Below, piece after piece: positions 2,747 through 39,000 of a stretch of 64,000 bases of DNA. Both the position numbers and the translations under genes were made by a program. Source of the DNA: a virus (Duplodnaviria; Heunggongvirae; Uroviricota; Caudoviricetes); the IMG/VR virus record IMGVR_UViG_2531839524_000004; one strand, 5' to 3'. How positions within the stretch are numbered: position 1 is the stretch's first letter; each line of letters starts with the position of its first letter. The notes beneath the pieces were generated by a model, which saw only the letters and a list, made by a program, of their open reading frames with translations, did not search any database and was not told the DNA's origin.

Positions 2747-2795
2747 GTATCTGGATAAGTAAGTACTAATTTACTATCATTGTGGCGCTGACAGG

Positions 2796-3527
2796 ATGTT
2801 AGCGCCTACTTATTTCAAGGATGAAACAATGGGAATTAAAGCTGATATTCAGAGCTTATCTCCCTCTGCACTCATTGAGTTGTTCGTACTGGATATGTCG
2901 AACACAACTTCAGGGGGGAAGCTATTCTTCCACGCCGGAACAAACGAACTGATGCAACCGGTCGTCTGGCAAGGAGTGACATACGAGCCGTGGCCAATAA
3001 AAGCATCAGGCTTTGACAAAACGGGCCAGGGAACGTTGCCACGTCCAAAAATTCAGGTATCGAACTTTGCCGGAACCGTCTCTGCGGAAGTTCAGGCAAA
3101 CGACGATCTTGTTGGCTGCCGCATTATTCGCAAGATGACGCTGGCTCGCTTCCTCGATGCCGTTAATTTTAAAGACGGTAATCCAACAGCAGATCCAAAC
3201 CAACATTTCCCGGATGAAATGTGGTTTATCGAACAGAAAACGCTCGAAACTCATCAGGTTGTCGAGTTTGAGTTGTCCAGTGTGTTCGATTTGATGGGGG
3301 TGCAACTGCCGTATCGTCAGATCATTAAAAACACCTGCCCGTGGAAATACCGAGGGCCAGAATGCGGCTATACCGGTCCATATTTCGACAAAAATAACCA
3401 GCAGACGTCTATGTCTGGTGCTGATTACTGCACAAAACGTTATGACGCCTGTAATGCGCGTCGGAATTATTTTGCCAACGGAGTGATCCATTTTGGCGGG
3501 TTTATTGGAGCTACGCGATATGGGTAA
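2796..3527 (+). CDS. Minor tail protein (lambda gpL-like)
   Basis: 243 aa; C-terminal Cys cluster 'CPWKYRGPECGY...C...C' as in gpL Fe-S proteins; a likelier start is the internal ATG at 2829 preceded by AAGGA. Confidence 0.7.
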   Translation: MLAPTYFKDETMGIKADIQSLSPSALIELFVLDMSNTTSGGKLFFHAGTNELMQPVVWQGVTYEPWPIKASGFDKTGQGTLPRPKIQVSNFAGTVSAEVQANDDLVGCRIIRKMTLARFLDAVNFKDGNPTADPNQHFPDEMWFIEQKTLETHQVVEFELSSVFDLMGVQLPYRQIIKNTCPWKYRGPECGYTGPYFDKNNQQTSMSGADYCTKRYDACNARRNYFANGVIHFGGFIGATRYG

Positions 3528-4317
3528 TAAAGCAATCCCTGAGCTTGGCTCTGATGTTATGCAGCAAATCTATCTCTGCGCCATAAATCGCTACCCTAAT
3601 GAAGCGTGTGGCTTTCTGGTGAGAACTAATGGCGACAAATATCGCTTTATGGAAGCGCGAAATGTTTCGGAGAACCCGCAGAACACTTTTGTAATGCACG
3701 TTGACGACATTATAGCGGCAGAGGATGCAGGTGACGTAATCGCAATCTGGCATTCACATACTGATGAATCAGCAGAAGCATCTGATGCCGATCGTGCAGG
3801 CTGTGAAGCGACGGAAGTTCCGTGGATGATTCTGGCTATTCGCAAGAATGTTGAGGGAGATGCCCCTTTCCATTTTAGCGAGATGAATGTGATCACACCT
3901 GATGGTTTCGAAATGCCATACCTGGGTAGACCGTATGTATTTGGCGTATTCGATTGCTGGATGTTGTGTCGGGACTATTTGAAGCGTGAGTTTAACGTCG
4001 AGCTTAACCCGAACGCACACCTGCATATTCCATCGTGGTACACCGGCGATAACGACATTCTCGACCAGAACTACCGAAACGAAGGGTTGGTACGGCTTGC
4101 GCCTGGAACAGAGCCTCAACGTGGGGACGTCTTCTTTATTCAATACGGGAAAATGCCAGATCACTGCGCGGTTTATATCGGCGATGGAATGATTCTTCAT
4201 CACCAGATCGACCGTCTTAGTTGTCGTGCTTATTACGGCGGAATGTATCAGAAACATACGACGCATCACTTGCGTCACAGAGACTTGCTCAAGGGAGATG
4301 AGACGTGTCTGAGTTAG
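3520..4317 (+). CDS. Tail tip assembly protein (lambda gpK-like; JAMM/MPN plus NlpC/P60 domains)
   Basis: 'AIWHSHTDESAEASDADR' is an HxH...D JAMM-like motif; C-terminal 'FDCWMLCRDY' and 'DHCAVYIGDGMILHH' fit an NlpC/P60 Cys/His pair. ORF track starts at 3493; start trimmed to the ATG at 3520. Confidence 0.7.
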   Translation: MGNKAIPELGSDVMQQIYLCAINRYPNEACGFLVRTNGDKYRFMEARNVSENPQNTFVMHVDDIIAAEDAGDVIAIWHSHTDESAEASDADRAGCEATEVPWMILAIRKNVEGDAPFHFSEMNVITPDGFEMPYLGRPYVFGVFDCWMLCRDYLKREFNVELNPNAHLHIPSWYTGDNDILDQNYRNEGLVRLAPGTEPQRGDVFFIQYGKMPDHCAVYIGDGMILHHQIDRLSCRAYYGGMYQKHTTHHLRHRDLLKGDETCLS

Positions 4318-14185: not shown

Positions 14186-14878
14186 ATGAAGACTCCGAGA
14201 GGCATTCGTAATAATAACCCCGGTAATCTTGATAAAGGATCACCGTGGCAAGGTCTGGTTGCGAATCCAGATGAACCGCGCTTTTGCACGTTTAAAGACC
14301 CTGTTTGGGGGATTCGTGCGTTGGCGGTGACTCTAATTACCTACCACGACAAACGTCGCGCAAAAGACGGCTCAAGTATCGATACCATTCGTGAAGTTAT
14401 TGAACGTTGGGCACCGCCGAATGAAAACAACACTGACGCCTACATTAATGAGGTGTCTAAAGCCGTTGGTGTAACCGCAGACATGATCATCGATCTGCAT
14501 GATTACGACATTCTTCGACCTTTGGTTGAGGCAATCATTCGCCATGAGAATGGGCGAGGTCCGCTAAAAACGCTGAACACCTGGTATGCGGCAGAAGTTA
14601 TTGAGGAAGGTCTGCGTCGAGCTGGCGTCGTTAAGCCGGTGAAAACCGTGAAGGCTGTTCCTGTAACTAAAGAAACAGCAGGCGCAACTGTCACAGCAGG
14701 TATTGGTCTGGCGCAGCTGGCCGATGTTATGCCGCAGGTTTCCGCTGCTATGGATAAAGCACAAGGTCATATCTCTAGCGGGGATACAGTACGCATCATC
14801 TTCGGTATTGCCACTATTGTTGTGGCTGGATTTATCGCCTGGTCGCAGGTAAGAAGACACCAGAAAGGGATGGTCTAA
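14186..14878 (+). CDS. Putative endolysin / peptidoglycan hydrolase with C-terminal membrane segment
   Basis: 'GIRNNNPGNL' N-terminal motif, which I associate with phage cell-wall hydrolases; located between holin-like and spanin genes; ATG at 14186 is preceded by AGGAG. Confidence 0.5.
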   Translation: MKTPRGIRNNNPGNLDKGSPWQGLVANPDEPRFCTFKDPVWGIRALAVTLITYHDKRRAKDGSSIDTIREVIERWAPPNENNTDAYINEVSKAVGVTADMIIDLHDYDILRPLVEAIIRHENGRGPLKTLNTWYAAEVIEEGLRRAGVVKPVKTVKAVPVTKETAGATVTAGIGLAQLADVMPQVSAAMDKAQGHISSGDTVRIIFGIATIVVAGFIAWSQVRRHQKGMV

Positions 14879-14879
14879 T

Positions 14880-15131
14880 ATGCTAGGCAGCCTGATGACA
14901 AAGCTCAAAGTTGCTTTGATTACGCTGGCTGCCGTTCTTTTCGTTCTGGTCGGCGCTTACACGATGGGCGGAAATGCGGCGCGACGAGCAATGGAAGAGA
15001 AGGCAAAACAGGAAGACAGGAAACGACTTCAAAGCACAGTGGACGTCAAAAATGAAACACTTGATGAGTTACGGCGCAAGGATGCTTCTACTGTTCATCA
15101 TGAGTTGCACAATAAGTGGTTGCGTGATTAA
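14880..15131 (+). CDS. i-spanin (Rz-like)
   Basis: 83 aa with N-terminal TM 'LKVALITLAAVLFVLVGAYTMG' then charged coiled-coil-like region; directly after the endolysin. Confidence 0.5.
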   Translation: MLGSLMTKLKVALITLAAVLFVLVGAYTMGGNAARRAMEEKAKQEDRKRLQSTVDVKNETLDELRRKDASTVHHELHNKWLRD

Positions 15132-15282
15132 GCCTCAATCCTCTGGTGTGCTTTTCTGCGATGCGGCTACACCGCTATACATCAGCCGTGATGATCTCAT
15201 GACCGAAGAGACTGAAAGGGAAGTACTTTTTCACAATATGATAGGGGAGCGATTGTGTGGATGGGGCAGAAAAGTGCCATAA
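15052..15282 (+). CDS. o-spanin lipoprotein (Rz1-like), out-of-frame overlap with the i-spanin gene
   Basis: 'MKHLMSYGARMLLLFIMSCTISGCV' has a signal peptide and lipobox-like 'ISGC'; start lies inside the i-spanin gene in another frame, the classic Rz/Rz1 arrangement. Confidence 0.5.
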   Translation: MKHLMSYGARMLLLFIMSCTISGCVIKPQSSGVLFCDAATPLYISRDDLMTEETEREVLFHNMIGERLCGWGRKVP

Positions 15283-15456
15283 TAAAAGCGGAATTTTCTA
15301 ACATAAAATTTGCATATTATTAGAGCACAAGGTAGATTTGAAGCATGGATGTCAAGTAAATCATACCTTGTTTTAATAAATCGACGCATACTCGTAGCCT
15401 CTAAACCGACAAGGTCGCCGCTATGACATAAAGTTATTACCGGCTAAGGTGGAAAC

Positions 15457-15855
15457 ATGCATACTGCACTTAACGCATCTCGTTCTATTCAGACGATAAG
15501 AGACTGTACCAAGATGATCGCATCGGTTCCGTTGCGACATTGGAATGACTCGCTCCAAATTCGTGAAATGAACAAACCGGGTATGCTTAAGGATCAGCGT
15601 TTCATCGTTAACCTTAAAAGTGACGTTGAAGAAGGCAAGTTTACCATCAAATTGTTTGCAGAAATGATGGTGCTCAACAATCGGTTACGTTTTCTTGTTA
15701 AGCCAGAAAAACAGTTTCCCGATGTTGTGCGTTGTGAACAGGATGCTTTCTATGAGATTGAAAGCAAAATAGCTAAATTTATCAAAGATAAATACCGCGT
15801 AGATGTTAAAATAGCGAAACTGGATTCATCTACGGATATGCGGCTTGCTAACTAA
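15457..15855 (+). CDS. Hypothetical protein (first gene of a two-gene cargo operon)
   Basis: 132-aa ORF with its own upstream intergenic region; no motif recognised. Confidence 0.5.
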   Translation: MHTALNASRSIQTIRDCTKMIASVPLRHWNDSLQIREMNKPGMLKDQRFIVNLKSDVEEGKFTIKLFAEMMVLNNRLRFLVKPEKQFPDVVRCEQDAFYEIESKIAKFIKDKYRVDVKIAKLDSSTDMRLAN

Positions 15856-16632
15856 ATGTCACCATCATTCATAGCAGAGTATTCAAAAGTACTGTCTGGT
15901 TTCCCTGAATGTGAAGCAAGAGAGAAAATCAGAGTTGGCTACATGGTTAACTCTGATTTTTCTGTTTTACGGCTCACAGAGTGGTCCTTGATCGGGTCTA
16001 ATTATGATTACTGTTTGACAGTGTCATTTGTAGGCGACCCTGATGCAGATTGGCTTCAAGAACATGCAATGGATCTTGACGAGCAGGGGTATTCAGAAGC
16101 AGAGATAGTTCATAGTGTTCGTGAATTAGTTGGTGATGAGCAAGAAGATGATGACGGCATTCAGATCGCCAGGTTCGTCTACAAACGATTCCAGTTTCGC
16201 TCACAAAAAGGCTCTCATCTTGGGGTCCAGATTAAAGGGGCATTTGTAACCCCTTCAAAGGAACAAAAGGGACTTGCTAGAAGAGTTTACAATTTCCTTC
16301 TCAATTGGCATGACCATGTGGTATGTGATGACCATCAGACGGTTTACGGTGCCAGAATTTGGGCGGTCGGTATGCTTCTGGTCGGGCGTGTCCAAATCTA
16401 TGACAATTTAAACAAAGAATTTATAGATGTCCTTGTTGAAGGTGGTATTGGGCAGAATGGCGTCAAACCGTGGGACGCGCTGCTATTGAGCAGCGAGGCC
16501 CAGTTACGTCACTGGAACCCTATGGCCGTCAGCATAGACCCATCTAGTCAGATTCTCGCCATCATCTCCAAAGAAGACCGTCACATTGAAGTGGGCGTTA
16601 CAACTTTTGACGCCAGGTCTACCAACCATTAA
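15856..16632 (+). CDS. Hypothetical protein (second gene of the cargo operon)
   Basis: 258-aa ORF abutting the previous gene; followed by a rho-independent terminator; acidic stretch 'GDEQEDDDG'. Confidence 0.5.
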   Translation: MSPSFIAEYSKVLSGFPECEAREKIRVGYMVNSDFSVLRLTEWSLIGSNYDYCLTVSFVGDPDADWLQEHAMDLDEQGYSEAEIVHSVRELVGDEQEDDDGIQIARFVYKRFQFRSQKGSHLGVQIKGAFVTPSKEQKGLARRVYNFLLNWHDHVVCDDHQTVYGARIWAVGMLLVGRVQIYDNLNKEFIDVLVEGGIGQNGVKPWDALLLSSEAQLRHWNPMAVSIDPSSQILAIISKEDRHIEVGVTTFDARSTNH

Positions 16633-16640
16633 TTCCTAAA

Positions 16641-16661
16641 CCCGCTTCGGCGGGTTTTTGA
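16641..16661 (+). terminator. Rho-independent terminator
   Basis: 'CCCGCTTCGGCGGG' hairpin followed by TTTTT. Confidence 0.65.
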
Positions 16662-16787
16662 TGTTTCAGTTTCTTTATCAACCTACTAATTAACCTTTAC
16701 ACCGCAGCCGTAGGCATTTAGGCTATATCACATATAAGAAAACAAGTTGTTTCAGACGATAATTATATACGCAAAGGGAACTCTCCA

Positions 16788-17456
16788 ATGACCAAGATCT
16801 TTGTGGTTGGCGGCACAAAGGGCGGGCCTGGCAAATCCACCGTTGCCCAGCAAATTGCCGTTTGCCTGAAAGTCAAAAAGAAGAAGAAGGTTTATATCAC
16901 TGATATAGATATTCAGCGCACGACAACAAGCTGGTGTGAAGACCGTCGACAGAACGAAGACCTTGAGCTGATTCCTTTTGCATACGTTCAGGATGACATC
17001 ATTAAGCACCTAAAATCGCTTCAGGGTAGAGCTGAGTTTGTAGTGGTAGATGCTGGTGGCTTTGACTCCGAAATTCAGCGACAAGCGATGCTGATGGCCG
17101 ACGTTATCATTATCCCGCTGCGTCCTAAGCGTCGTGATTTGAAATCTTTACGTGACATCGATCCTATTATCGACAATGTTCGTAATGTAAACGATAAAGT
17201 GAAGGTCCGCGCGGTCATGAACCAGTGCCCGGCTTTGCCATCACAAGTGTCTCGCATTTTGGCGGCTAAAGAGATTGTCGAGACGTTTGGCATCGAGTCT
17301 GCGCCAGTCAATTTATATAACCGCAACGTCTATGATGATGCGGAAGAGTCTGGTCGTTCTATCTTTGAAATGACCGGTAGCGAGCGCGACAAAAAGGCGG
17401 AAGCCGAGTTTGAAGAATTTGTAGATTATCTGTTGAGTCTGGAGGAAGAAGAATAA
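16788..17456 (+). CDS. parA: ParA-family partition ATPase
   Basis: Deviant Walker A 'GGTKGGPGKST' near the N-terminus; 222 aa; followed by a small DNA-binding partner gene. Confidence 0.8.
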   Translation: MTKIFVVGGTKGGPGKSTVAQQIAVCLKVKKKKKVYITDIDIQRTTTSWCEDRRQNEDLELIPFAYVQDDIIKHLKSLQGRAEFVVVDAGGFDSEIQRQAMLMADVIIIPLRPKRRDLKSLRDIDPIIDNVRNVNDKVKVRAVMNQCPALPSQVSRILAAKEIVETFGIESAPVNLYNRNVYDDAEESGRSIFEMTGSERDKKAEAEFEEFVDYLLSLEEEE

Positions 17457-26156: not shown

Positions 26157-26332
26157 TGCTCGGCTGGATGATTGCATTTTTAGCAGTTGGGTTTTTCATA
26201 GGTATTGTGGTGATGTCCAGTTGCATCAATGACTACATTAAAAGCGGTGTTATAGAAAGACGCGGTCGTATTTATCGCATTGTAGAAATAACCAACACCC
26301 TGAAGGAGATTAAGGATGATCGTATTAAGTAA
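26153..26332 (+). CDS. Small membrane protein (59 aa; below the ORF-track length cut-off)
   Basis: ATGA overlap with the ligase stop; 'MMLGWMIAFLAVGFFIGIVVMSS' TM segment then 'RRGRIYRIVEITNT'; paralogous to the ORF at 26528. Confidence 0.4.
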   Translation: MMLGWMIAFLAVGFFIGIVVMSSCINDYIKSGVIERRGRIYRIVEITNTLKEIKDDRIK

Positions 26333-26531
26333 ACGGGAGAAGGAAACGCTTCATGAAATCAGTAAGTGGCCGGAGTTCCCTGAGTACTGGAAGCCTAAAA
26401 CGCGAGCTAAGTTAGAGCGTTTAGGGTTGGTTGCAAACGTTTCTGAAACGTGGTGTTCGGCCAACTACCAGTTAACTGATAAAGGGAAAGTATTGCTACA
26501 GCAATTAGTAGAATCAGGAGTGTTAAAATGA
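26316..26531 (+). CDS. Hypothetical small protein
   Basis: 71-aa ORF overlapping its neighbours in a tightly packed string of small genes. Confidence 0.4.
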   Translation: MIVLSKREKETLHEISKWPEFPEYWKPKTRAKLERLGLVANVSETWCSANYQLTDKGKVLLQQLVESGVLK

Positions 26532-26680
26532 TTCCATACATCTCATTAGCTTTTATGGGTGGCTTCCTTATCGGCTTCGGCATCTGTCGTGATTTAATTA
26601 AGCAGGAACTTAAAACCAAAACACTGTGCATCGGAAAGCGTGTGTATCGGGTAGTTCATGAAACAAAGGTGAAAAAATGA
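26528..26680 (+). CDS. Small membrane protein (50 aa), paralog of 26153-26332
   Basis: 'MIPYISLAFMGGFLIGFGIC' TM segment then 'GKRVYRVVHETKV', same architecture as the 59-aa protein; ATGA overlaps at both ends. Confidence 0.4.
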   Translation: MIPYISLAFMGGFLIGFGICRDLIKQELKTKTLCIGKRVYRVVHETKVKK

Positions 26681-26967: not shown

Positions 26968-27202
26968 AAACATATTGATAAGTATTTACTTACTTATCTT
27001 TTGTGTATAAGATGACTTTGTTTTCGTTGAGACGCGACTGTTTGAACTTAAATACAAGTGCAAACGAAGAAGTCTATCTGGCAGTAGCCTAATAAGCCAA
27101 ACACCAGCGAGGTCAGTTTCCAGCCTCGTTACCGAAATGGGACACACTGAGCGAGTGGGATTGCAGAACGCAGGAGGGAACATTCATGTTCCCTCCGATG
27201 AA

Positions 27203-27281
27203 GTAACAGAATGGGCGGTTGGTATATTTTCAACTCCATATGACTCCCGGATTCTTAGCCACTGACCGCCCATTCTGTTAC
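27203..27281 (+). ncRNA. Hairpin element A (17-bp perfect stem, 45-nt loop), member of a three-copy family
   Basis: 'GTAACAGAATGGGCGGT' pairs with 'ACCGCCCATTCTGTTAC'; loop contains 'TTTTCAACTC' and 'GACTCC' shared with element C. Confidence 0.45.
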
Positions 27282-27356
27282 GTCATTTTGTTCAATTATG
27301 TCGTTTATACTGGGTTAAAAAGCGGCGACGTAGCCCGGCTGGTATGGTTAGCCAGC

Positions 27357-27479
27357 ACACAACGTTGAGGCCATTACATTTTTATCAATTCTAAGGTTCT
27401 ATTCACAGAGATACCGGCGAGCGTTGATATGTAACATGTTGGGCAAACATTCAATCGGAGTAGTGGCCTCAACGTTGTG
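27357..27479 (+). ncRNA. Hairpin element B (16-bp perfect stem, ~90-nt loop)
   Basis: 'CACAACGTTGAGGCCA' pairs with 'TGGCCTCAACGTTGTG'; stem closely resembles element C; loop begins 'TTTTTATCAATTC'. Confidence 0.45.
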
Positions 27480-27745
27480 AAGACGGGATTGTTGTGTAGG
27501 TTTAACCACTGTTGCCATTGGTGCCTGTTTTCACAACAAATGATTCCATACATCACATTGTATAAATTACAAAGTAGGTGCTGTCCTCAGAAACATCATC
27601 TACTTAAAGATTTTGCCTTCTACTATTGAGCGAAGTCGAAAGCGTCTGGCACTAACGAAAAGTGCAAGTAGCGGTGCGTTTCCTGGCAGAAACTAAACCG
27701 TCGCGATTGGCACTGTTGAGTAATAAATACTGGCAGTGCTGAATT

Positions 27746-28297: not shown

Positions 28298-28376
28298 ACA
28301 CAGCGTTGAGCGGTTTGGCCTTTTAATCAACTCGATTAAGACTCCGCTAACATAAACCAGACCGCTCAACGCTGTG
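28298..28376 (+). ncRNA. Hairpin element C (16-bp perfect stem, 46-nt loop) abutting the 3' end of tRNA-Ser
   Basis: 'CACAGCGTTGAGCGGT' pairs with 'ACCGCTCAACGCTGTG'; loop contains 'TTTTAATCAACTC' and 'GACTCC'. Confidence 0.45.
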
Positions 28377-28450
28377 ATAGATAATTACGGCAGACGTTCT
28401 TAACCATAGCTTGCTAACATCCTAGCAACACTTTTTTCAGCGCAAAATTC

Positions 28451-28473
28451 AAAGGGGCTTCGGCCCCTTTTTT
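28451..28473. terminator. Bidirectional rho-independent terminator
   Basis: 'AAAGGGGC-TTCG-GCCCCTTTTTT' with an A-tract on the other side; between the tRNA cluster and the convergent minus-strand gene. Confidence 0.65.
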
Positions 28474-28488
28474 GTTGAACAGTGCAAT

Positions 28489-29751
28489 TTACTTTGCATA
28501 GTCGCCCAATTTTAATATTTCGCGCTTATATTCATTAACCATGCTACTGGATTCAGTATAAATTCGATTTAAAAGATTATCGTTATCTTTATTTTCATTT
28601 ATCTTAATTAGTGCTAATTTATATTCATAGTCATCAAATGCCACAATTAAATGGTGGCCTGGGATTATATCTTCGTCACTCTTAAAGTATATATCTTCAA
28701 GTATGTAATCTAGTTGATTAGATTTTCTTTTCTCGATGTAATCTTCAGCCATAGCTATTACATCATTCCTGTCATTTAACCTGTTTTTTTCGGAAGGCAC
28801 ATCTTCGTAATGTTGCACGATTGAACAACCAATAAGGCGTGGGATGTAAACGTCAAAATGAGTAACTCTATCATTCGCGGTTTTAAGTAGTTCCTCAAAG
28901 TAGTTTCTTACATGTAAAGGCAACTTCTCAAAGTAATCATTAATTATAGGAGAACAAGGAGTTTTATAATTCATAAGAACCGACGGTACGAGCTTTGGGT
29001 GTCGAAACATCCAGTCCCTTTTAACGTCCGATGGAACATAATAACTTTTAATGATATTATCAAAATAATTTATCATTCGAGATTTGAATATTTTGTTGAA
29101 TCTAAGGTTTATGAATGTATCCAGATAAGGCATATTTGAATAAGCATCATCAAAAAATATTTCATCATTGAAAAAATCATATTTATTCAATAAACAACAC
29201 AGTTTTTCCGAATTAATATGTTCACAATAATCGATTTTTAATCCAAAGATAGCAATGATCAACTTCATCTGAGGTGGGATTTTAAAAATTAATTGTGACA
29301 CATACGCTCTTTTTTCCTTGAGACATTCCCCATCAATATAAAATGAACCATCCACATACTCAAATATATTAATAATATGCTTCACATACTGTATTACCTC
29401 ATGCTGTCTTACCAATGGATAATATAGTCTATGTAACTCATCGCTGTTTAAATTAATTTTGTGTTTATCGATAATTTGTTTTGCAAGAAGACATAACTCA
29501 TCATGTTGATTTAATAAGGAATCAAACCATTGTTTAAATGCACTCTTTCGCATTTCGAACAATGATTCAGTTGTTAATTGAAGGGCTGAAAAAGCTGCTT
29601 TTGCACTTTTTCTCGCTTCGTAGGCATTCCATGCTGTTGCTATAAAAGCAAATGCTGTAGCCAATGTTCCAACAGTTTGACCATTTAAAACAACCCAATC
29701 CCAAAAAATGACGGTGAGCAGTAGTATAATAATGAAAATTAAAAAAGGCAT
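28489..29751 (-). CDS. Membrane-anchored hypothetical protein encoded in an AT-rich island
   Basis: 420 aa; two N-terminal TM segments then a large soluble domain with no motif I recognise; locus is visibly much more AT-rich than surrounding phage genes. Confidence 0.6.
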   Translation of the reverse strand: MPFLIFIIILLLTVIFWDWVVLNGQTVGTLATAFAFIATAWNAYEARKSAKAAFSALQLTTESLFEMRKSAFKQWFDSLLNQHDELCLLAKQIIDKHKINLNSDELHRLYYPLVRQHEVIQYVKHIINIFEYVDGSFYIDGECLKEKRAYVSQLIFKIPPQMKLIIAIFGLKIDYCEHINSEKLCCLLNKYDFFNDEIFFDDAYSNMPYLDTFINLRFNKIFKSRMINYFDNIIKSYYVPSDVKRDWMFRHPKLVPSVLMNYKTPCSPIINDYFEKLPLHVRNYFEELLKTANDRVTHFDVYIPRLIGCSIVQHYEDVPSEKNRLNDRNDVIAMAEDYIEKRKSNQLDYILEDIYFKSDEDIIPGHHLIVAFDDYEYKLALIKINENKDNDNLLNRIYTESSSMVNEYKREILKLGDYAK

Positions 29752-29925
29752 GTATGTATTTCACTCTACTAACTATAAAATATTAGGCTAATGTTAACCA
29801 AACAATGCCTTAATTAATAGATTGATCGAGGCTTTAATAGCTTTATAATGCAGACTGTAAAGATAAGTATGCACATACCTATCTTCTTTGTAAGTAAAGT
29901 TGCATATCAATTCTATGAGGTAACA

Positions 29926-30171
29926 ATGACGATCACTATCTACGGACGAGATAACTGCTCATACTGCAAACGTGCGGTCGAGCTGGCGAAGCAACTAAAG
30001 GGACATGGCTACGGTGATTATGAGTACATCGACATCACCACTGCCGGTATCGACAAGGAAAAACTAAGTGAAATTGTTGGTAAACCGGTAGAGACTATCC
30101 CCCAAGTGCTGATCGATGGCCAACCGATTGGCGGATACACAGAACTGGCTGCATACGTCAGCACCCTCTGA
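29926..30171 (+). CDS. Glutaredoxin / NrdH-like redoxin
   Basis: 'MTITIYGRDNCSYCKRAVELA' carries the CxxC active-site motif at the expected position; about 80 aa from the internal ATG of the 29848 ORF. Confidence 0.7.
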   Translation: MTITIYGRDNCSYCKRAVELAKQLKGHGYGDYEYIDITTAGIDKEKLSEIVGKPVETIPQVLIDGQPIGGYTELAAYVSTL

Positions 30172-30176
30172 TTTTA

Positions 30177-30198
30177 ACGGCTCACAGGAGCCGTTTTT
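30177..30198 (+). terminator. Rho-independent terminator
   Basis: 'ACGGCTC-ACAG-GAGCCGT' followed by TTTTT, immediately after the redoxin gene. Confidence 0.6.
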
Positions 30199-30250
30199 AT
30201 TCCCACCAAACTCACTCCCGTTTCCCTTAAAATTCAAAAAACAACGTCAA

Positions 30251-30283
30251 AATGATTCCATACCTACTATGTATGGAATCATT
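30251..30283. other. Candidate site-specific recombination site: perfect 13-bp inverted repeats around a 7-bp spacer
   Basis: 'AATGATTCCATAC-CTACTAT-GTATGGAATCATT', about 100 bp upstream of the tyrosine recombinase gene. Confidence 0.45.
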
Positions 30284-30381
30284 ACTGAAAATGAGTTACT
30301 TTGACTCTTGATCCTATAAGAATCTATGCCTAATATACTGTTTACTTATACAGTGAATCGGCGTAACTCGGTGATTGTCAT

Positions 30382-31485
30382 ATGAAAAATAGCTTTGACA
30401 GAGCACGCGCTGCGGAGAACACCTCAAAAGAGGCGATTGAGTATCTCGAAAGAGCATCTCAAATGCAGGCCGTTATGATCTCGCAGGTTAGCAATGATAT
30501 GAGATTCTCGGACGCATTCATGTTATTTACTCGCTTATCTCTGCTGATAACAAGACGTCGGCCGGAGATCGCTGTTCATTGTATTTTGATACATGTTTTG
30601 CCGCACATTGCTGATGTAAAAGTAAGTGACATTAATAGGTTCATGGTGAACCAACTGGTCAACCCCCTAATACTGGATGGCAAAATTGTTATGGGCCGCC
30701 GCGTTTTCTCTCTGATGAAGCAGTTCCTTAGCTGGTGTGCCTTCCAGGGGATGATCGACGTGTCACCGTTAAACGATATGTCACTAAACAAAGTTGCCGG
30801 TGGCGCAAAGCCCACGCCTCGCGAGCGGAAGCTAACCGACGCAGAGGTATGGGTGTTCTGGAATATATGGGACTACTTCAATGTGTGCGCTGGTACAAAA
30901 TGGGCGGCCAGGCTATGTCTTGTATCCGCAAGACGACCTGACGAAGTACTGCGGGCTAAAAAAAGTGAGTTCAACCTCCAGCGTGGGGTTTGGAATCAAG
31001 GCAAGAGAAACAAATCAGCCCGTGAGCATTCTCTGCCTTTAAGCACATTAATGCGCACATGCATTGAAGAGTTATTCGAATATGGTAAAGGCAGCCAGTG
31101 GCTTGTGCCTTCGAATAAAAAAATCGGGAAAGATCTTCCGATGTCTAAAGTGGCAATAGCCCAGGCATTACGCCGTATCCTGGAACGACCAGAACTGATG
31201 GAGCTTGAGCCATTTACACCACGAGATTTGCGTCGTACTGCGCGTAGTTACTTCCCAGCATTAGGCATAAGCCAGGAGGTATCACGTAAAATCATGAACC
31301 ACAGTCTTGAGGGGATAGATCGGGTCTACGACCGGCACGATTATATGGACGAGATGCGAGACGCCTTAGAAAGTTTCTCGACGTACATCGCATCAATCGT
31401 AGAGCAACCGGATTTAGACGAAATTGACCACAAATTCAAGGGAGATCGTCTATCGACAGAGCTTATTCGTGTAAATTTTTCATAG
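30382..31485 (+). CDS. Tyrosine recombinase / integrase-family protein
   Basis: C-terminal 'TPRDLRRTARSYF...IMNHSLEGIDRVYDRHDY' resembles the HxxR...H...Y catalytic region of tyrosine recombinases, with Arg where the first His is usual; 'SARRPDEVL' is a box I-like Arg. Confidence 0.65.
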   Translation: MKNSFDRARAAENTSKEAIEYLERASQMQAVMISQVSNDMRFSDAFMLFTRLSLLITRRRPEIAVHCILIHVLPHIADVKVSDINRFMVNQLVNPLILDGKIVMGRRVFSLMKQFLSWCAFQGMIDVSPLNDMSLNKVAGGAKPTPRERKLTDAEVWVFWNIWDYFNVCAGTKWAARLCLVSARRPDEVLRAKKSEFNLQRGVWNQGKRNKSAREHSLPLSTLMRTCIEELFEYGKGSQWLVPSNKKIGKDLPMSKVAIAQALRRILERPELMELEPFTPRDLRRTARSYFPALGISQEVSRKIMNHSLEGIDRVYDRHDYMDEMRDALESFSTYIASIVEQPDLDEIDHKFKGDRLSTELIRVNFS

Positions 31486-31866
31486 AGACTTTATGGCCTC
31501 AACAACCTTTTGTGATGCGCCTTTCTCTTTACCGAATCGCTCGTTATATGCAGCAAGAACCTGTTTTTCGTCCTCGTTAAGAGGAGCAGTGCCTTCTTTG
31601 TATAAAAATGCTGCGAGTTCGGGTTGGCGTTCTTCCAGCACCATCATCATAAGACGACTTGGCTCAATACCCAGTGCCAGCGCCAGCGGACGAACCTTAT
31701 CGATAGGCAAAGGAATTTTGCCGCTTTTAATTAAAGAAAGGTTGTTGGCGTTTTTATACCCAATTGTTTTGGCTATCTGGGCCTGGCTCATAGGTGAGGA
31801 TTCAATCAACCCTGCGATAAAAGCAGCGTAGCGACTTTCTATAAATTCAATCTTGTTGTCAGACAT
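31480..31866 (-). CDS. XRE-family helix-turn-helix transcriptional regulator
   Basis: 'SQAQIAKTIGYKNANNLSLIKSGK' HTH-like segment; 128 aa; convergent with the recombinase and divergent from the vWA/AAA+ operon across a 560-bp AT-rich region. Confidence 0.6.
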   Translation of the reverse strand: MSDNKIEFIESRYAAFIAGLIESSPMSQAQIAKTIGYKNANNLSLIKSGKIPLPIDKVRPLALALGIEPSRLMMMVLEERQPELAAFLYKEGTAPLNEDEKQVLAAYNERFGKEKGASQKVVEAIKSL

Positions 31867-32118
31867 TGTTACAACCTTTGCGCGTTCAATTCTCTCTGGT
31901 AAGTGCTTACCGATATTACATCAAAGGTTAGGGTTGTAAAGCTATTATCATTTTTTTCGATAGGCACTTAAAAGACCGGTTAAAGGCCATTGCACGGAGA
32001 AAAAATTAGCCCAAAACAGGTAAGAAAATTAACTTGCATCTAATATGGATGTATTCAGTATTGATATAAATTTTAGTAGTATTCCTTACAATAGTATAAG
32101 TAAGAATGGATTGATTGA

Positions 32119-32331
32119 ATGAACACCACTATTTCCAGCCTAATAGCTCTTGAGATCGGACACGTACAAAAATTAGCTGATGAGTGTGTAGCTGACATCC
32201 TCACCGAGCTACCGAATGAGCAGATTGAGGTTGGTGTGAATGACACAACTGGCTTTATATTCGAACTTAACAACAAACGCTTCACGCTTATCAATACCGG
32301 CTCCGGGTCTTTAGCCGTCAGAACCTGTTAA
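32119..32331 (+). CDS. Hypothetical small protein
   Basis: 70-aa ORF in the AT-rich intergenic region; coding status uncertain. Confidence 0.3.
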   Translation: MNTTISSLIALEIGHVQKLADECVADILTELPNEQIEVGVNDTTGFIFELNNKRFTLINTGSGSLAVRTC

Positions 32332-34538: not shown

Positions 34539-34633
34539 TTAAAACAGCCTTAATGATAAGTAACTACTTATCATAGTTAATGGTATATTTATATAAGAAA
34601 TTAAACGCTCATTAGAGAACAAAGGAAAAGCGC

Positions 34634-36075: not shown

Positions 36076-39000
36076 CTTCTCTCTTGGGGAGTCGGCTCTA
36101 AAAGCAGAAAACGCGGGGAAGATTGCCAGAGAAGCTGGCTACACCGCTGTAATTTCGGCAGATAGCATGAATATTGCGAGTGTTATTCCACTACAACGTG
36201 CCGCTGGTGACGACATGGCGGTTATTTGTGGTGTGAAACTAAACATCGTTGATGATCCCACATACGAGCACCGGGCTAAACTTGCTAAAGAGTCTATGAG
36301 ATGTATGGAATCATTAGAGCGTGGGCGGAACTACTCGTTTACCGCTCTAATTAAAAATGAGCAAGGATATCGCGACATCTGCGAACTAATGACGGTGGCC
36401 AACACACGAGAACAATTCTACTTTGTACCGCGTCTCTCGCTCGATCAGCTGGTTTCTACATATGCCAAAGGCAACATCATCCTGCTTACTTCCGACATCG
36501 GTAGCGTGTTCCAACGCAACGATTTTGCAAAAATCATAAGCTCACTGATTACAGCGGGTGGAAAAGACAACTTCTATAGCGTGGTTTATCCGCACCCTAC
36601 CCCATTCTACGACCAGATTAACGTCCGAGCGATGAAAGTAGCTAGCGCACTGAAAATAGAGCCAGTGGCGTTCTATCCCGCTTATTACGAATCGATCGAC
36701 GATGCAGACATTAAAGACATTGCGCACATGGTTACGAACAACATCAAAATAGCCCAGCCGCATCGTCTGCGTATCCCCCACCAGCGAGATAACGCCGTCA
36801 ATGGTCGCCGCCATCTCCTTGAGGCGCTTAAAGCCTTCTCCGTTCGCATGGATGTGCCGGTAACAGCTGCAATGGCCTCAACAACGCAGGACACCATTAT
36901 CGAAGCCTGCACATGGCGCTGGCATGAATTGCCACCAGCACTTCCTAAGATGGCAGACGACGAACCTGCAACACTGATGAAACTTGCTGTTGCAGGGCTG
37001 CGTAAGCGTCTTACCACAAAAGAGTTTGGCTATATACCACCGGCTTCTGAGAACAGGGTTTATGTTGAACGACTTAAGTACGAAATGGACACGCTGACTC
37101 GCCTGGGATTCTGTGGTTACTTCCTGATGGTGCGCGATCTGATGAATCATAGTCGTGAAACTGGCATTCCCGTTGGGCCTGGTCGTGGTTCCTCTGCCGG
37201 TTCTCTGGTGGCGTGGTGCATAGGCATAACCAACGTCGACCCAATCCGTCACGGTCTTCTGTTTGAACGTTTCATCAACCCTGAGCGTCTCGACTTGCCG
37301 GATGCGGATTTGGACTTCAGCCAGGCACGTCGCCATGAGGTGATCGAGTATCTGAATGAACGCTACGGCGAAGATTACGTTGCAGGCATTCCGAACTTCA
37401 CCTACCTGGGCGCCGCCTCTGCACTACGTGACACTGCTCGTATTTATGGTGTGGAGTCCGCAGATATGGCGGTATCAAAAGAGCTGAAGAACGTCGAGGA
37501 TGATAGCCTTCCATTGGAGGAGCTGCGCGAACAACTGGCAAGTCTCGACAAATACGCGACAAAATACCCTGATGCATTCAATGCAGCCTGCAAGTTACAA
37601 AGCCTTATGCGTGGCTTTGGTAGGCATGCGGCTGGGATGATCGTAGCAGGTGTTCCTCTGACTGAACGTACACCGGTTGAACGTCGTGGTGACGCGCGTT
37701 GTATCGCATTTGACAAGCGTTACTGCGAGGCTATGGGCCTAATTAAGCTGGACGTACTTGGCCTAGCAACTCTCGATTTGCTCGATAGTGCAAAACGCTA
37801 TATCAAAGAGAACACGGGTGAAGATATCAACCTTGATGCCATTTCTCTTGAAGATCGCAAGGTGCTGGATGGTTTTGCTGCTGGGTACACTCAAGGTGTT
37901 TTCCAGCTTGAATCAGGCCCAATGCGCAAGCTGCTTAAGGACTTAGGTAGTGGCATTGAGCCAATGAGCTTTAAAACGGTCGTTGCTACGACTGCGCTCT
38001 TCCGACCGGGGCCAATTCAGTCAGGCATGTTGGATGACTATGTTTCTGTCGCCAAAGGTTTTATGACGCCAGAGTCACTACACCCCGTTCTTGATGAGCT
38101 TACCGCAGAAACCAACGGTGTGATTCTCTATCAGGAGCAGACGATGAACGCGACCCGATTGCTTGCCGGCTTCACAATGGCTGAAGCTGACGGCGTTCGT
38201 AAAGCGATCGGCAAAAAAGATATGGAAAAAATGAAGAGCATGGGCGAGAAGTTCATCGTTCAGGCTCAAGCTGGCTGGATAGACGTTGAGCTGGAAGATG
38301 GCACTACACAGCGCATTCACCGTGCGGAACATTTTAAATGCGAAGACGGAACTCTGAAAACTGTCGAAGAGGCACTTGAGCACGGCGCAAAACTACCTAT
38401 AAACGCAGTACGCGTGACAGCGTCACACCCAGGGCTATCAGAGATGAAAGCGAAGGAGATCTGGACCGCATTCGAAAAAAATGGTGCCTACCAGTTCAAC
38501 AAATCACACTCTGTTGCTTACTCCTTAATCAGTTATCAATCTATGTGGTTGAAAACTCATTATCCCGCAGAGTTTTTCGCTGCTGCTCTTACTATTCTTG
38601 GTGAAGATAAACACCAGGGGCTGGTTAAAGATGCGCTGACCTATGGCATTCGCGTATTGCCACCAGACGTTAATGTGTCATCTAACCGAATAGAGATCCG
38701 CACGCTTGAAGATGGCAGCCAGGTGCTGTTCGCGCCTTTCTCTGCTGTGAAGGGGTGTTCAGAGAATGGCTGCCAAGCCATCATGAGAGCGCGTGAAAAA
38801 GTTGGAGGTAAATTCGAGTCACTGGCGCAATTCGAAGAAGCTGTCGAGAAACGTGCCTGTAATAGTCGAGTACGCGAATCACTGCAAAAAGTAGGGGCGT
38901 TTGCATCCATTGAGCCTGGTAGTCTGCCAGCAACTGATCCAGAGCGTCTCCGCGACCAAGCAGAATTGATGGGAAACCTTGTCATAGACGCAGTTAAAGC

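Follow-up and report, generated by a model that had tools for sequence, protein, structure and literature searches.

A tyrosine recombinase and its palindromic core-type site in SSU5-like phage-plasmids and other plasmids, a probable Cre/lox-style resolution pair accompanied by conserved lone arm copies

The window, a 64,000-nucleotide stretch of an SSU5-like phage-plasmid of E. coli that is closely related to phage Cyrano/pLF82, carries a tyrosine recombinase gene (int) beside a perfect 13-7-13 palindrome. By analogy with known systems, this simple and previously undescribed pair most likely serves Cre/lox-style plasmid multimer resolution. The palindrome recurs with the same geometry, 40-150 bp from an Int homolog, in ~170 related loci. 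None of the records inspected annotates the site, the gene being called merely "integrase", and a literature search with the motif strings returned no relevant paper containing them. Tyrosine recombinases are among the persistent genes of the SSU5 supergroup (PMC7969092). The core of the module consists of four features:

30251-30283, no strand assigned: full site, composed of the 13-bp arm AATGATTCCATAC, a 7-bp AT-rich spacer and the 13-bp inverted arm GTATGGAATCATT (sequence, conservation)
30264-30270, plus strand: spacer CTACTAT, the presumed overlap or crossover region (sequence)
30308-30336, plus strand: candidate int promoter TTGATC-17-TAATAT, inferred from sequence and under the threshold of the promoter scan
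30382-31485, plus strand: int, encoding a 367-aa tyrosine recombinase with core-binding and catalytic domains (Pfam, alignments, AF2)

Read directly from the sequence, the left arm spans 30251-30263 and the right arm 30271-30283, and the ATG of int follows 98 bp further downstream. The original prediction had described exactly this geometry, with the recombinase gene about 100 bp downstream, and both points hold. It had also taken the palindrome for the core-type site of the recombinase, a view that is now strongly supported: site and gene co-occur with position and orientation kept from 100% down to 40% Int identity, an int homolog adjoining the palindrome in the same orientation at 105 of 108 loci (101 from IMG/VR and seven from phage records) and in 57 of 58 species genomes. 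Under a search pattern that permitted 16 combinations, the arms exist in two versions only, both dyad-symmetric: ATGATTCCATAC, found with Int proteins of at least 57% identity, and TGACTCCAGAC, found with those of 40-52%. The changes between them are paired (T5 to C and T10 to G in both arms), and the arm type follows the Int clade with one mixed exception. The spacer comes in 11 variants in the ATGATTCCATAC clade, each tied to an int lineage; spacers that vary between lineages while the arms stay invariant are the pattern expected if a spacer must match only its partner. Exact reverse-complement flips of the spacer separate near-identical genomes (ATAGTAG in L004 versus CTACTAT in L050, with identical flanks), and CTATTAA and TTAATAG also alternate. 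The spacer is nearly symmetric (TTAATAG versus CTATTAA), and with respect to int it occurs either way round. This tells against resolution, as neither property would be required of a strictly directional resolution site.

Could the palindrome be a product of chance, an intrinsic terminator or a structural hairpin unrelated to the recombinase? It does lie just downstream of the glutaredoxin gene, and its 13-bp stem would fold. However, it has no adjoining T-run on either strand, and the terminator scan makes no call there, placing the grx terminator at 30176-30195 instead. Its arms are invariant where the flanks have diverged, they co-vary with Int, and copies of the arm that stand alone elsewhere are conserved where no hairpin can form, leaving this explanation with next to no probability. 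The possibility, raised in the original prediction, of a common terminator-like palindrome does not hold up either: in the 108,379 bp of Cyrano the ATGATTCCATAC 12-mer occurs in five exact copies against 0.017 expected from base composition, all five within 9.2 kb around int, and the whole genome holds no copy with one mismatch. These counts mean that the copies are neither chance nor a common terminator-like palindrome. A replication origin or terminus at the palindrome was also considered and rejected, as the GC skew does not switch at the site.

What kind of recombinase accompanies the site? Int matches PF00589 over residues 172-320 (39.5 bits, gathering cut-off 27.1) and phrog_1 integrase at 1e-46, and a Pfam profile search finds in it no match to the PF13356 arm-binding domain that its nearest P4-type relatives carry. 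The match to PRK09692 reaches 33.6 bits, far under the cut-off of 434, and a sequence search of the PDB returned no match at E 0.01 or better. The AF2 model (pLDDT 86.2, pTM 0.78) comprises core-binding and catalytic domains and a helical N-terminus. Its best Foldseek match is lambda Int residues 75-356 (1z1b/1z19/5j0n; E 5.6e-7 to 3e-6; target-normalised TM reaching 0.75), followed by Tn1549 Int and XerH/XerA, with Cre structures ranking 41st and lower (E 0.035-0.14). By sequence and by fold, the P4/lambda-type integrases (PF13356 + PF22022 + PF00589; PRK09692) are the nearest relatives. Int descends from this type and is not Cre-like (Foldseek E ~0.04 for Cre versus 5.6e-7 for lambda Int).

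The active-site positions are R185, K211, R281 (the His-II position), R284, H307 and Y316. Across 52 aligned homologs, R185, R284 and Y316 never vary; K211 is kept in 51 and H307, at the His-III position, in 49, where the other three have Gln. R281 falls in the alignment column occupied by the His of HDLRRT in integrases of the P4-type outgroup; Arg occupies this position in 47 of the 52, and the remaining five, with His, are P4-type outgroup sequences, a group in which five of six keep the His. Five of the six positions are thus canonical in Int, and the sixth is a conserved basic substitution. The Arg that had been pointed out in place of the first His of HxxR is accordingly real, and the alignment identifies it as a fixed trait of the whole Int family, no lesion. 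Because of this family-wide Arg, and of the Gln at His-III in 3 of 52, activity of Int cannot be assumed from a canonical pentad.

The distribution of the module ties it to plasmids. The palindrome and int are also found together on non-phage plasmids and megaplasmids of Pantoea, Rahnella and Erwinia, int being the sole neighbour of the palindrome common to phage-plasmid and non-phage contexts. In 5426 complete E. coli genomes, all 254 places lie on plasmids and none on a chromosome; in 206 E. coli genomes the 35-bp site is present once, each time on a plasmid. The Int family occupies 938 places in 932 PLSDB plasmids, 899 of which are typed as non-mobilizable. Such a distribution bears on whether the palindrome might be an attP core, with Int inserting the phage-plasmid, in some hosts, at an attB of the chromosome and switching it between plasmid and integrated states. 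The descent of Int from P4/lambda-type integrases favours this, as does the spacer, since att cores of the lambda type typically have a 7-bp overlap. However, none of the 254 E. coli occurrences is chromosomal, and the 5426 genomes contain no exact chromosomal copy of the 35-bp site. Int also lacks an arm-binding domain, no excisionase-like gene is adjacent, and the same module is stable on Pantoea and Rahnella megaplasmids, making integration a highly improbable function. Multimer resolution, which the original prediction had proposed, is a probable role that fits a plasmid-only single-copy site, a recombinase that has no arm-binding domain and a module shared with ordinary plasmids and megaplasmids.

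The left edge of the palindrome is where related replicons diverge. In four independent lineages homology breaks at 30233-30252, and the genes on the left differ: the window has an AT-rich ORF of 420 aa there, Cyrano has CYRAN_43, and PhiR41_1 and pJN2-26 have other genes. One reading is that accessory genes enter or are exchanged at this site, as at an integron attI or in cassette exchange, with Int capturing or swapping the cargo just left of the palindrome. The strong expression of CYRAN_43 in lysogens, 723-fold above local background (PMC9928086), would suit such cargo; PADLOC gave no defence-system match for either CYRAN_43 or the 420-aa ORF. Yet the cargo is not bounded by another full site or by a hybrid one; its left boundary is the tRNA-Ser/terminator region near 28376-28476 rather than a half-site. 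Moreover, loose conservation extends ~25 bp beyond the left end of the palindrome, in an AT-rich sequence (CAGAATTTAAA or TTCAAAAAA), so that the homology junction does not fall exactly at the arm. Ordinary moron turnover beside a conserved element explains the pattern, and we regard cargo exchange as improbable.

What, then, of the arm copies that stand alone? The window contains three exact ones and a degenerate one:

26527-26542, plus strand: half-site 1, AATGATTCCATAC followed by ATC, overlapping the stop of a 71-aa ORF and the start of a 50-aa ORF
27539-27554, plus strand: half-site 2, AATGATTCCATAC followed by ATC, intergenic, ~190 bp upstream of the tRNA-Asn/Tyr/Thr/Ser array
36300-36315, minus strand: half-site 3, AATGATTCCATAC followed by ATC (13-mer at 36303-36315), inside dnaE at about codons 84-89, encoding CMESL
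30988-31000, minus strand: degenerate arm copy CTTGATTCCAAAC inside int, three mismatches (sequence, comparison)

Together with the two arms of the full site, the exact 13-mer thus occurs at 26527(+), 27539(+), 30251(+), 30271(-) and 36303-36315(-). Direct copies had been predicted at ~26525 and ~27539; both exist, the first starting at 26527, and the copy in dnaE had been missed. The three further bases said to recur with the arm are the ATC that trails each of the three lone copies. Half-site 1 joins the 71-aa ORF (26316-26531) to the 50-aa membrane-protein ORF (26528-26680, phrog_6302), its internal ATG being the start codon of the latter. The copy inside int reads TTGATTCCATACAT in lineages with Int of 82-86%.

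The lone copies are conserved in their own right. Half-site 1 is an invariant island with divergent flanks among 24 distinct sequences, half-site 2 is also a conservation island, and half-site 3 presents 14-15 consecutive invariant columns amid variation at third codon positions. Across ~60 loci, all copies of the 12-mer plus ATC point toward the palindrome, without exception. They are confined to the ATGATTCCATAC clade, number three or four in the lineage of the window, and are missing from the TGACTCCAGAC clade, which has the bare palindrome. The half-sites are conserved, polar, single-arm motifs of a binding type. Their use as recombination partners, which had been foreseen, is unlikely: they have no second arm, their ATC-led "spacers" are unlike the palindrome spacer in every lineage, and no rearrangement junction was found at any half-site in ~60 related loci. 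As recombination junctions they were rejected because no homology breakpoint falls at any of them. As deletion products they were rejected because, in genomes that have only one left half-site, its flanks are those of one of the two normal sites or are unrelated, and in none are they the flanks expected from a deletion between half-sites 1 and 2.

Several other origins of the motif were discarded. Coding constraint fails because, although the copies open a possible MIPYI... frame, synonymous positions are invariant, and the CMESL segment of DnaE is not kept in the TGACTCCAGAC clade. A known RNA family or sRNA does not apply, since Rfam finds tRNAs only and the copies lie in both senses relative to the mRNAs. 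A set of master-repressor operators, like the dispersed asymmetric P1 C1 operators, is at odds with only five motif copies, all at most 9.2 kb from int, and the arm motif is absent from the promoter region of the HTH "repressor" gene (31867-32120). Another palindromic repeat, GATAAGTA..TACTTATC, looks more operator-like than the arm motif.

Alternatively, Int might act chiefly by binding DNA as a regulator, in the manner of YopR (SPbeta) or SroF (phi3T), and recombine little or not at all. The palindrome would then be a dimer operator for autoregulation and the half-sites monomer operators or roadblocks on the small-gene cluster, the tRNA array and dnaE. YopR and SroF, both recombinase-fold repressors, appear weakly among the Foldseek matches (E 3e-3 to 2e-2), and the Arg at His-II, the occasional Gln at His-III and the conservation of single-arm sites at gene starts and inside dnaE also speak for this reading. 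Furthermore, the palindrome adjoins or overlaps the int promoter region: the full site is at about -60 to -90 relative to the presumed int promoter, whose TTGAT motif is kept in the right flank of most lineages, and overlaps the promoter in the 60% clade. Nevertheless, invariant R185, R284 and Y316 and a nearly invariant K211 over 40-100% identity are hard to explain without catalysis, and the best fold matches of Int are active integrases. The module persists without half-sites in the TGACTCCAGAC clade and on megaplasmids, and the promoter scan finds no recognisable promoter overlapping a half-site. A mainly regulatory Int is unlikely.

From the observed sequence, conservation, co-variation and distribution, we infer how Int binding, catalysis and resolution could proceed and what part the half-sites may take. 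By analogy with Cre/loxP and other simple tyrosine recombinases, one Int monomer would bind each 12-13-bp arm, two sites on a plasmid dimer would synapse as an Int tetramer, and strands would be exchanged at the edges of the 7-bp AT-rich spacer, with no need for arm-type sites. Dimers of the ~108-kb low-copy phage-plasmid would arise by homologous recombination or replication, and the resolved monomers would then be segregated by the partition system. With the site near or over the presumed int promoter, binding of Int probably also tunes int expression. The lone arm copies are most simply viewed as binding sites for single Int monomers that arose only in the ATGATTCCATAC clade and are probably accessory or regulatory sites rather than crossover sites. 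No natural recombination junction was found at the full site in the related loci compared.

Placed beside known systems, the pair resembles Cre/loxP of P1, Dre/rox, Vika/vox and Panto/pox in having one recombinase gene beside two 13-bp inverted arms with a short asymmetric spacer, arm-type sites not being involved. The element is likewise a plasmid prophage in need of multimer resolution, the roles being those summarised in PMC7969092 and PMC10250229; a large screen for Cre-type pairs took in 8-bp spacers only (PMC10250229). Here, in contrast, the spacer has 7 bp rather than 8 bp, Arg stands at His-II, extra polar half-sites lie kilobases away and activity of Int is predicted. With the P4/lambda-type integrases the pair shares the overlap-sized 7-bp spacer; it differs from them in having no N-terminal arm-binding domain, in an element never integrated in E. 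coli and in the Arg at His-II. In TnpI/IRS of Tn4430 and Tn5401, a ~12-bp recombinase motif forms an inverted core pair and occurs in extra single copies, as direct repeats beside the core and, in Tn5401, also at the transposon ends, with regulatory or directional roles. The likeness is one of arrangement, the same motif serving as core pair and as lone copies. However, the TnpI accessory copies lie within ~100 bp of the core or in terminal repeats, whereas those described here are 2.7-6 kb away, one of them inside dnaE. XerCD/dif with its Ter sites and KOPS is likewise a resolution site flanked on both sides by oriented motifs that point at it. Unlike Ter and KOPS, the motif here is the recombinase arm itself, in only 3-4 copies; unlike at dif, whose geometry is 11-6-11, no GC-skew switch marks the palindrome, and sequence and geometry differ.

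We know of no precedent in Cre/lox-type resolution for conserved half-sites kilobases away, and since they are also missing from the TGACTCCAGAC clade, multimer resolution leaves a part of the biology unexplained. Since every one of them faces the full site, pairing one from the left with one from the right would imitate a full site split in two. It is conceivable, though on present evidence doubtful, that the polar half-sites are Int-monomer sites that form an intramolecular "split-site" synapse with the full site, a left (+) and a right (-) copy acting as the mimic of a second full site. If so, a looped Int tetramer on monomeric plasmids would control the timing of resolution; alternatively, Int occupancy would be linked to how the tRNA/small-gene cluster and dnaE are expressed or replicated. 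Either would be a new use of distant single arms by a simple tyrosine recombinase, and the two natural specificities, ATGATTCCATAC and TGACTCCAGAC, would be orthogonal for genome engineering.

Finally, the pair concerns a wide range of replicons: SSU5-like phage-plasmids and their relatives, among them Y. pestis pMT1, Salmonella plasmids near pHCM2, Klebsiella and E. coli phage-plasmids and Pantoea and Rahnella megaplasmids, with the Int family reaching at least 932 PLSDB plasmids. To our knowledge, conserved oriented half-sites, one of them in the dnaE reading frame, are not explained by known simple tyrosine recombinases. The family-wide Arg at His-II is an active-site variant worth biochemical study, and a non-Cre simple recombinase/site pair with a 7-bp spacer is a potential tool. 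A concrete 33-bp site with a probable role in plasmid maintenance provides an experimental entry point to how these widespread replicons, often of clinical relevance, are kept stable.

The gene int (30382-31485), encoding the 367-aa tyrosine recombinase Int, starts 98 bp past the end of a perfect 13-7-13 palindrome at 30251-30283, and exact copies of the palindrome's arm stand alone elsewhere in the window. The original prediction had noticed both the site and the extra arm copies, and sequence reading and a motif search bear it out: the two plus-strand copies are present, while a minus-strand copy had been overlooked.

30251-30263: left arm of the palindrome, AATGATTCCATAC
30264-30270: spacer, CTACTAT
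30271-30283: right arm of the palindrome, GTATGGAATCATT
26527 (+), 27539 (+), 36303-36315 (-): exact lone copies of the 13-mer arm (window motif search)
29848-30171: glutaredoxin gene (grx), upstream neighbour of the palindrome
31480-31866 (-): HTH_19 "putative repressor" gene, convergent with int, 6-bp overlap

Each of the three lone copies is directly followed by ATC. In the complete 108,379-bp genome of phage Cyrano, the 12-mer ATGATTCCATAC has five exact copies against 0.017 expected, all confined to 9.2 kb around int, and no one-mismatch copy; judged from these sequences, the arm copies are not due to chance. The palindrome lies ~55 bp past the grx terminator (30176-30195), has no adjoining T-run and was not called by the terminator scan. 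The refutation foreseen in the original prediction, a terminator-like palindrome that is common and has many copies unrelated to each other, therefore does not apply.

The window region is 96-98% identical to the E. coli SSU5-like phage-plasmids Cyrano (pLF82), CMS-2020a and PhiR41_1, versus about 73% for Klebsiella phage-plasmids such as pJN2-26. Its gene order runs helicase, primase, ligase, small genes, tRNAs, variable cargo, grx, int, the convergent HTH gene, cobT/cobS-like genes and dnaE. The region upstream of the HTH_19 gene (31867-32120) holds a promoter-like TTTACA-16-TAATAT at 31940-31913 and no copy of the Int motif. In the Xenorhabdus phage-plasmid L113, the cobS-like AAA_5 gene (14481-16802) encodes 773 aa with a LAGLIDADG_3 domain, probably an intein or homing endonuclease missing from the window's 411-aa homolog.

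Is the palindrome the core site of the recombinase, as originally proposed? A scan of IMG/VR for ATGATTCCATAC-N7-GTATGGAATCAT gave 101 loci, analysed together with seven loci from phage records. In 105/108 an Int homolog (59-100% amino-acid identity to the window's Int) keeps its side and orientation relative to the palindrome; the gap is 97-101 bp, shortened to 45 bp in the group with 60% Int identity, and the remaining three loci end before the int position could show. Four distant homologs (44-50% identity), from a Xenorhabdus phage-plasmid, a Providencia phage-plasmid, a 106-kb Erwinia plasmid and a 722-kb Rahnella megaplasmid, have int genes preceded at 70-130 bp by a palindrome of identical geometry, with arms (A/G)TGACTCCAGAC in all four; no phage genes are found on the Erwinia plasmid or the Rahnella megaplasmid. 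A degenerate scan of species genomes, allowing either base at two variable positions per arm (16 combinations), found 58 species, 57 of them with an Int homolog 40-150 bp away. Arm ATGATTCCATAC is paired with Int of at least 57% identity and arm TGACTCCAGAC with Int of 40-52%; no other arms occur than these two symmetric types, bar one mixed exception. The two arms have thus changed in concert, arm type tracks the recombinase clade, and Int is the sole gene common to all palindrome contexts compared. Palindrome and int form a conserved two-part module, and arm recognition by Int, and with it the proposed core site, is strongly supported: the co-change of the arms, the clade match and the sole common gene, alongside the co-occurrence, are the strongest evidence short of experiment. 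The exception, L135 (Biostraticola tofi, a 904-kb contig that could be chromosomal), has left arm GTGACTCCATAC and right arm GTCTGGAGTCAC and may be an evolutionary intermediate or hybrid site.

Against Pfam Phage_integrase (PF00589), Int scores 39.5 bits (cut-off 27.1), and its match to the central domain PF22022 is weak; it is 100% identical to Cyrano Int. Its family is a tight clade of ~365-aa proteins, and identity falls sharply from 43% within it to 25-34% with P4-type integrases, which carry the arm-binding domain PF13356 that is absent from the Int family. Active-site residues were counted in a 52-sequence alignment including six P4-type outgroup sequences.

R185: Arg-I, invariant
K211: Lys, 51/52
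R281: His-II position, Arg in 47/52; His in 5/52, all P4-type outgroup
R284: Arg-II, invariant
H307: His-III position, His in 49, Gln in 3
Y316: Tyr nucleophile, invariant

R281 aligns to the His of HDLRRT in five of the six outgroup sequences; the earlier observation of Arg in place of the HxxR His is therefore correct, and describes a fixed trait of the whole family. The equivalent residue of type IB topoisomerases is Lys; catalysis is thus compatible with a basic side chain at this site, and we regard Int as a putative enzyme. No PDB chain matched Int in sequence. Its AlphaFold model (pLDDT 86.2) comprises a helical N-terminal half and the catalytic domain, with lambda Int residues 75-356, Tn1549 Int and Xer proteins as best Foldseek matches; the recombinase-fold repressors YopR and SroF are listed at E 3e-3 to 2e-2 and Cre only at E ~0.04. 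Int is thus a P4/lambda-derived integrase with Arg at His-II and without the arm-binding domain, not a Cre-family protein.

The lone arm copies, or half-sites, follow a pattern of their own. Around 60 related loci with enough flank have two (+) copies, spaced by about 1 kb, at 1.3-7.4 kb to the left of int and one (-) copy ~5.9-6.2 kb to its right, in dnaE; lineages with 82-86% Int identity also have a near-copy, TTGATTCCATACAT, on the (-) strand within int. Copies of the 12-mer plus ATC are always (+) left of the palindrome and (-) right of it, each with the polarity of the same-side palindrome arm, a pattern with a chance probability of ~6% given just four homologous positions. The confirmed observation is thereby extended by the dnaE copy (a fourth), the int-internal relic and a polarity rule.

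36294-36320: dnaE codons about 82-90, the segment with the minus-strand half-site, which dictates the DnaE peptide CMESL

Conservation runs unbroken through the 12-mer plus AT(C), an invariant block between flanks that are poorly conserved or, within dnaE, differ at the third base of codons, a sign that selection acts on the half-site DNA itself. The CMESL segment is not conserved in the TGACTCCAGAC clade, where it is very different (for example EPLLEF), so the motif seems to have been imposed, as DNA, on a loop of the DnaE PHP domain that tolerates change. The TGACTCCAGAC clade, including a complete 108-kb Moellerella phage-plasmid, has no half-sites. The suggestion that the arm copies are potential recombination half-sites found no support: they lack a second arm, their ATC-led "spacers" are unlike palindrome spacers, and in related loci neither breaks in homology nor deletion products coincide with them. 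They are probably not crossover partners; most economically, they would be putative binding sites for single Int monomers, accessory or regulatory. The nearest precedent is TnpI of Tn4430 and Tn5401, where the recombinase motif is reportedly reused as lone copies. These conserved polar half-sites are the module's one unusual feature.

Within a clade the arms are fixed and the 7-bp spacer varies by lineage (CTACTAT, CTATTAA, TTGGTAG, TTGTAAG, TCTTTAG, TTATATA and TATGTAA among others), moving together with the int side. Exact reverse-complement spacers occur between identical flanks, ATAGTAG in PhiR41_1 (L004, 8001-8033) versus CTACTAT in the related locus L050, and both CTATTAA and TTAATAG are found in either orientation to int in both clades; L052 and L131 are further loci of such flips. 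Now and then, therefore, the palindrome's loop is inverted between otherwise near-identical genomes, though rarely: E. coli lineage members show it at ~1 in 40. We infer that template switches between the two perfect inverted arms, or recombination of one with the other, produce the flips; for a resolution site, spacer orientation relative to int is irrelevant.

Left of the palindrome, relatives diverge.

28476-30250: variable-cargo hotspot, bounded by tRNA-Ser plus terminator on one side and by the palindrome on the other
28489-29751 (-): 420-aa ORF, 36% GC, phrog_18168, unknown function; cargo of the window
26977-27001, 29859-29883, 34551-34573: second palindromic repeat family, GATAAGTA(N4-6)TACTTATC, distinct from the Int motif
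27198-27286, 27358-27479, 28299-28376: three long hairpin elements, arms 20-22 nt, 95% complementary

The 420-aa ORF has no PADLOC or Pfam match. Cyrano carries CYRAN_43 at the same place, expressed in LF82 lysogens at 723-fold over local background (PMC9928086). Homology among Cyrano, PhiR41_1 and both CMS-2020a records resumes at 30233-30252, the palindrome's left edge, with differing genes beyond, which could suggest Int-mediated cargo capture. However, the cargo has no second bounding site, its other boundary is the tRNA-Ser/terminator region, and a loosely conserved AT-rich stretch continues ~25 bp left of the arm. Capture is thus a minor alternative, and we read this stretch as a moron hotspot of the ordinary kind beside a conserved element. 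In L109 (E. coli WEM25 plasmid p1), an ISL3-family ISKox3 is annotated between the glutaredoxin gene and int (2752-3972), and similarity to the window starts only at 30342, ~60 bp past the palindrome; this locus could be a natural test of the need of int expression for the grx-int interval. The second repeat family, with copies after the small-gene cluster, at the glutaredoxin gene start and in the gap separating the cobT-like gene from the cobS-like one, resembles a set of operators for a regulator. The hairpin elements occupy non-coding DNA surrounding the tRNA array, two of them sharing CACA(A/G)CGTTGAG, and match no Rfam family.

Finally, we consider the role of the module. Among 5426 complete E. 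coli genomes, int and site occur in 251, plasmid-borne at 254/254 places; the 35-bp site alone occurs once per genome in 206 genomes, every time on a plasmid, never chromosomal and never annotated. In PLSDB, 932 plasmids encode the Int family, 899 of them typed non-mobilizable, with Klebsiella, Escherichia, Enterobacter, Pantoea, Yersinia, Salmonella, Citrobacter and Rahnella as leading genera. The phage-plasmid literature counts tyrosine recombinases as persistent genes in the SSU5 supergroup and remarks that such elements may need recombinases for dimer resolution, with no site described (PMC7969092). A published screen identified active recombinase/site pairs via 13-15-bp inverted repeats near recombinase genes, limited to Cre-type proteins and 8-bp spacers (PMC10250229); the Int motif was not found in the literature searched. 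The plasmid-only single-copy site, the PLSDB spread and the literature on SSU5 recombinases favour multimer resolution over chromosomal integration. The original interpretation is partly supported: the module resembles Cre/loxP in its architecture and likely function, although Int itself lies outside the Cre family. We infer that plasmid maintenance by multimer resolution is the best-fitting role of this widespread, apparently undescribed module.
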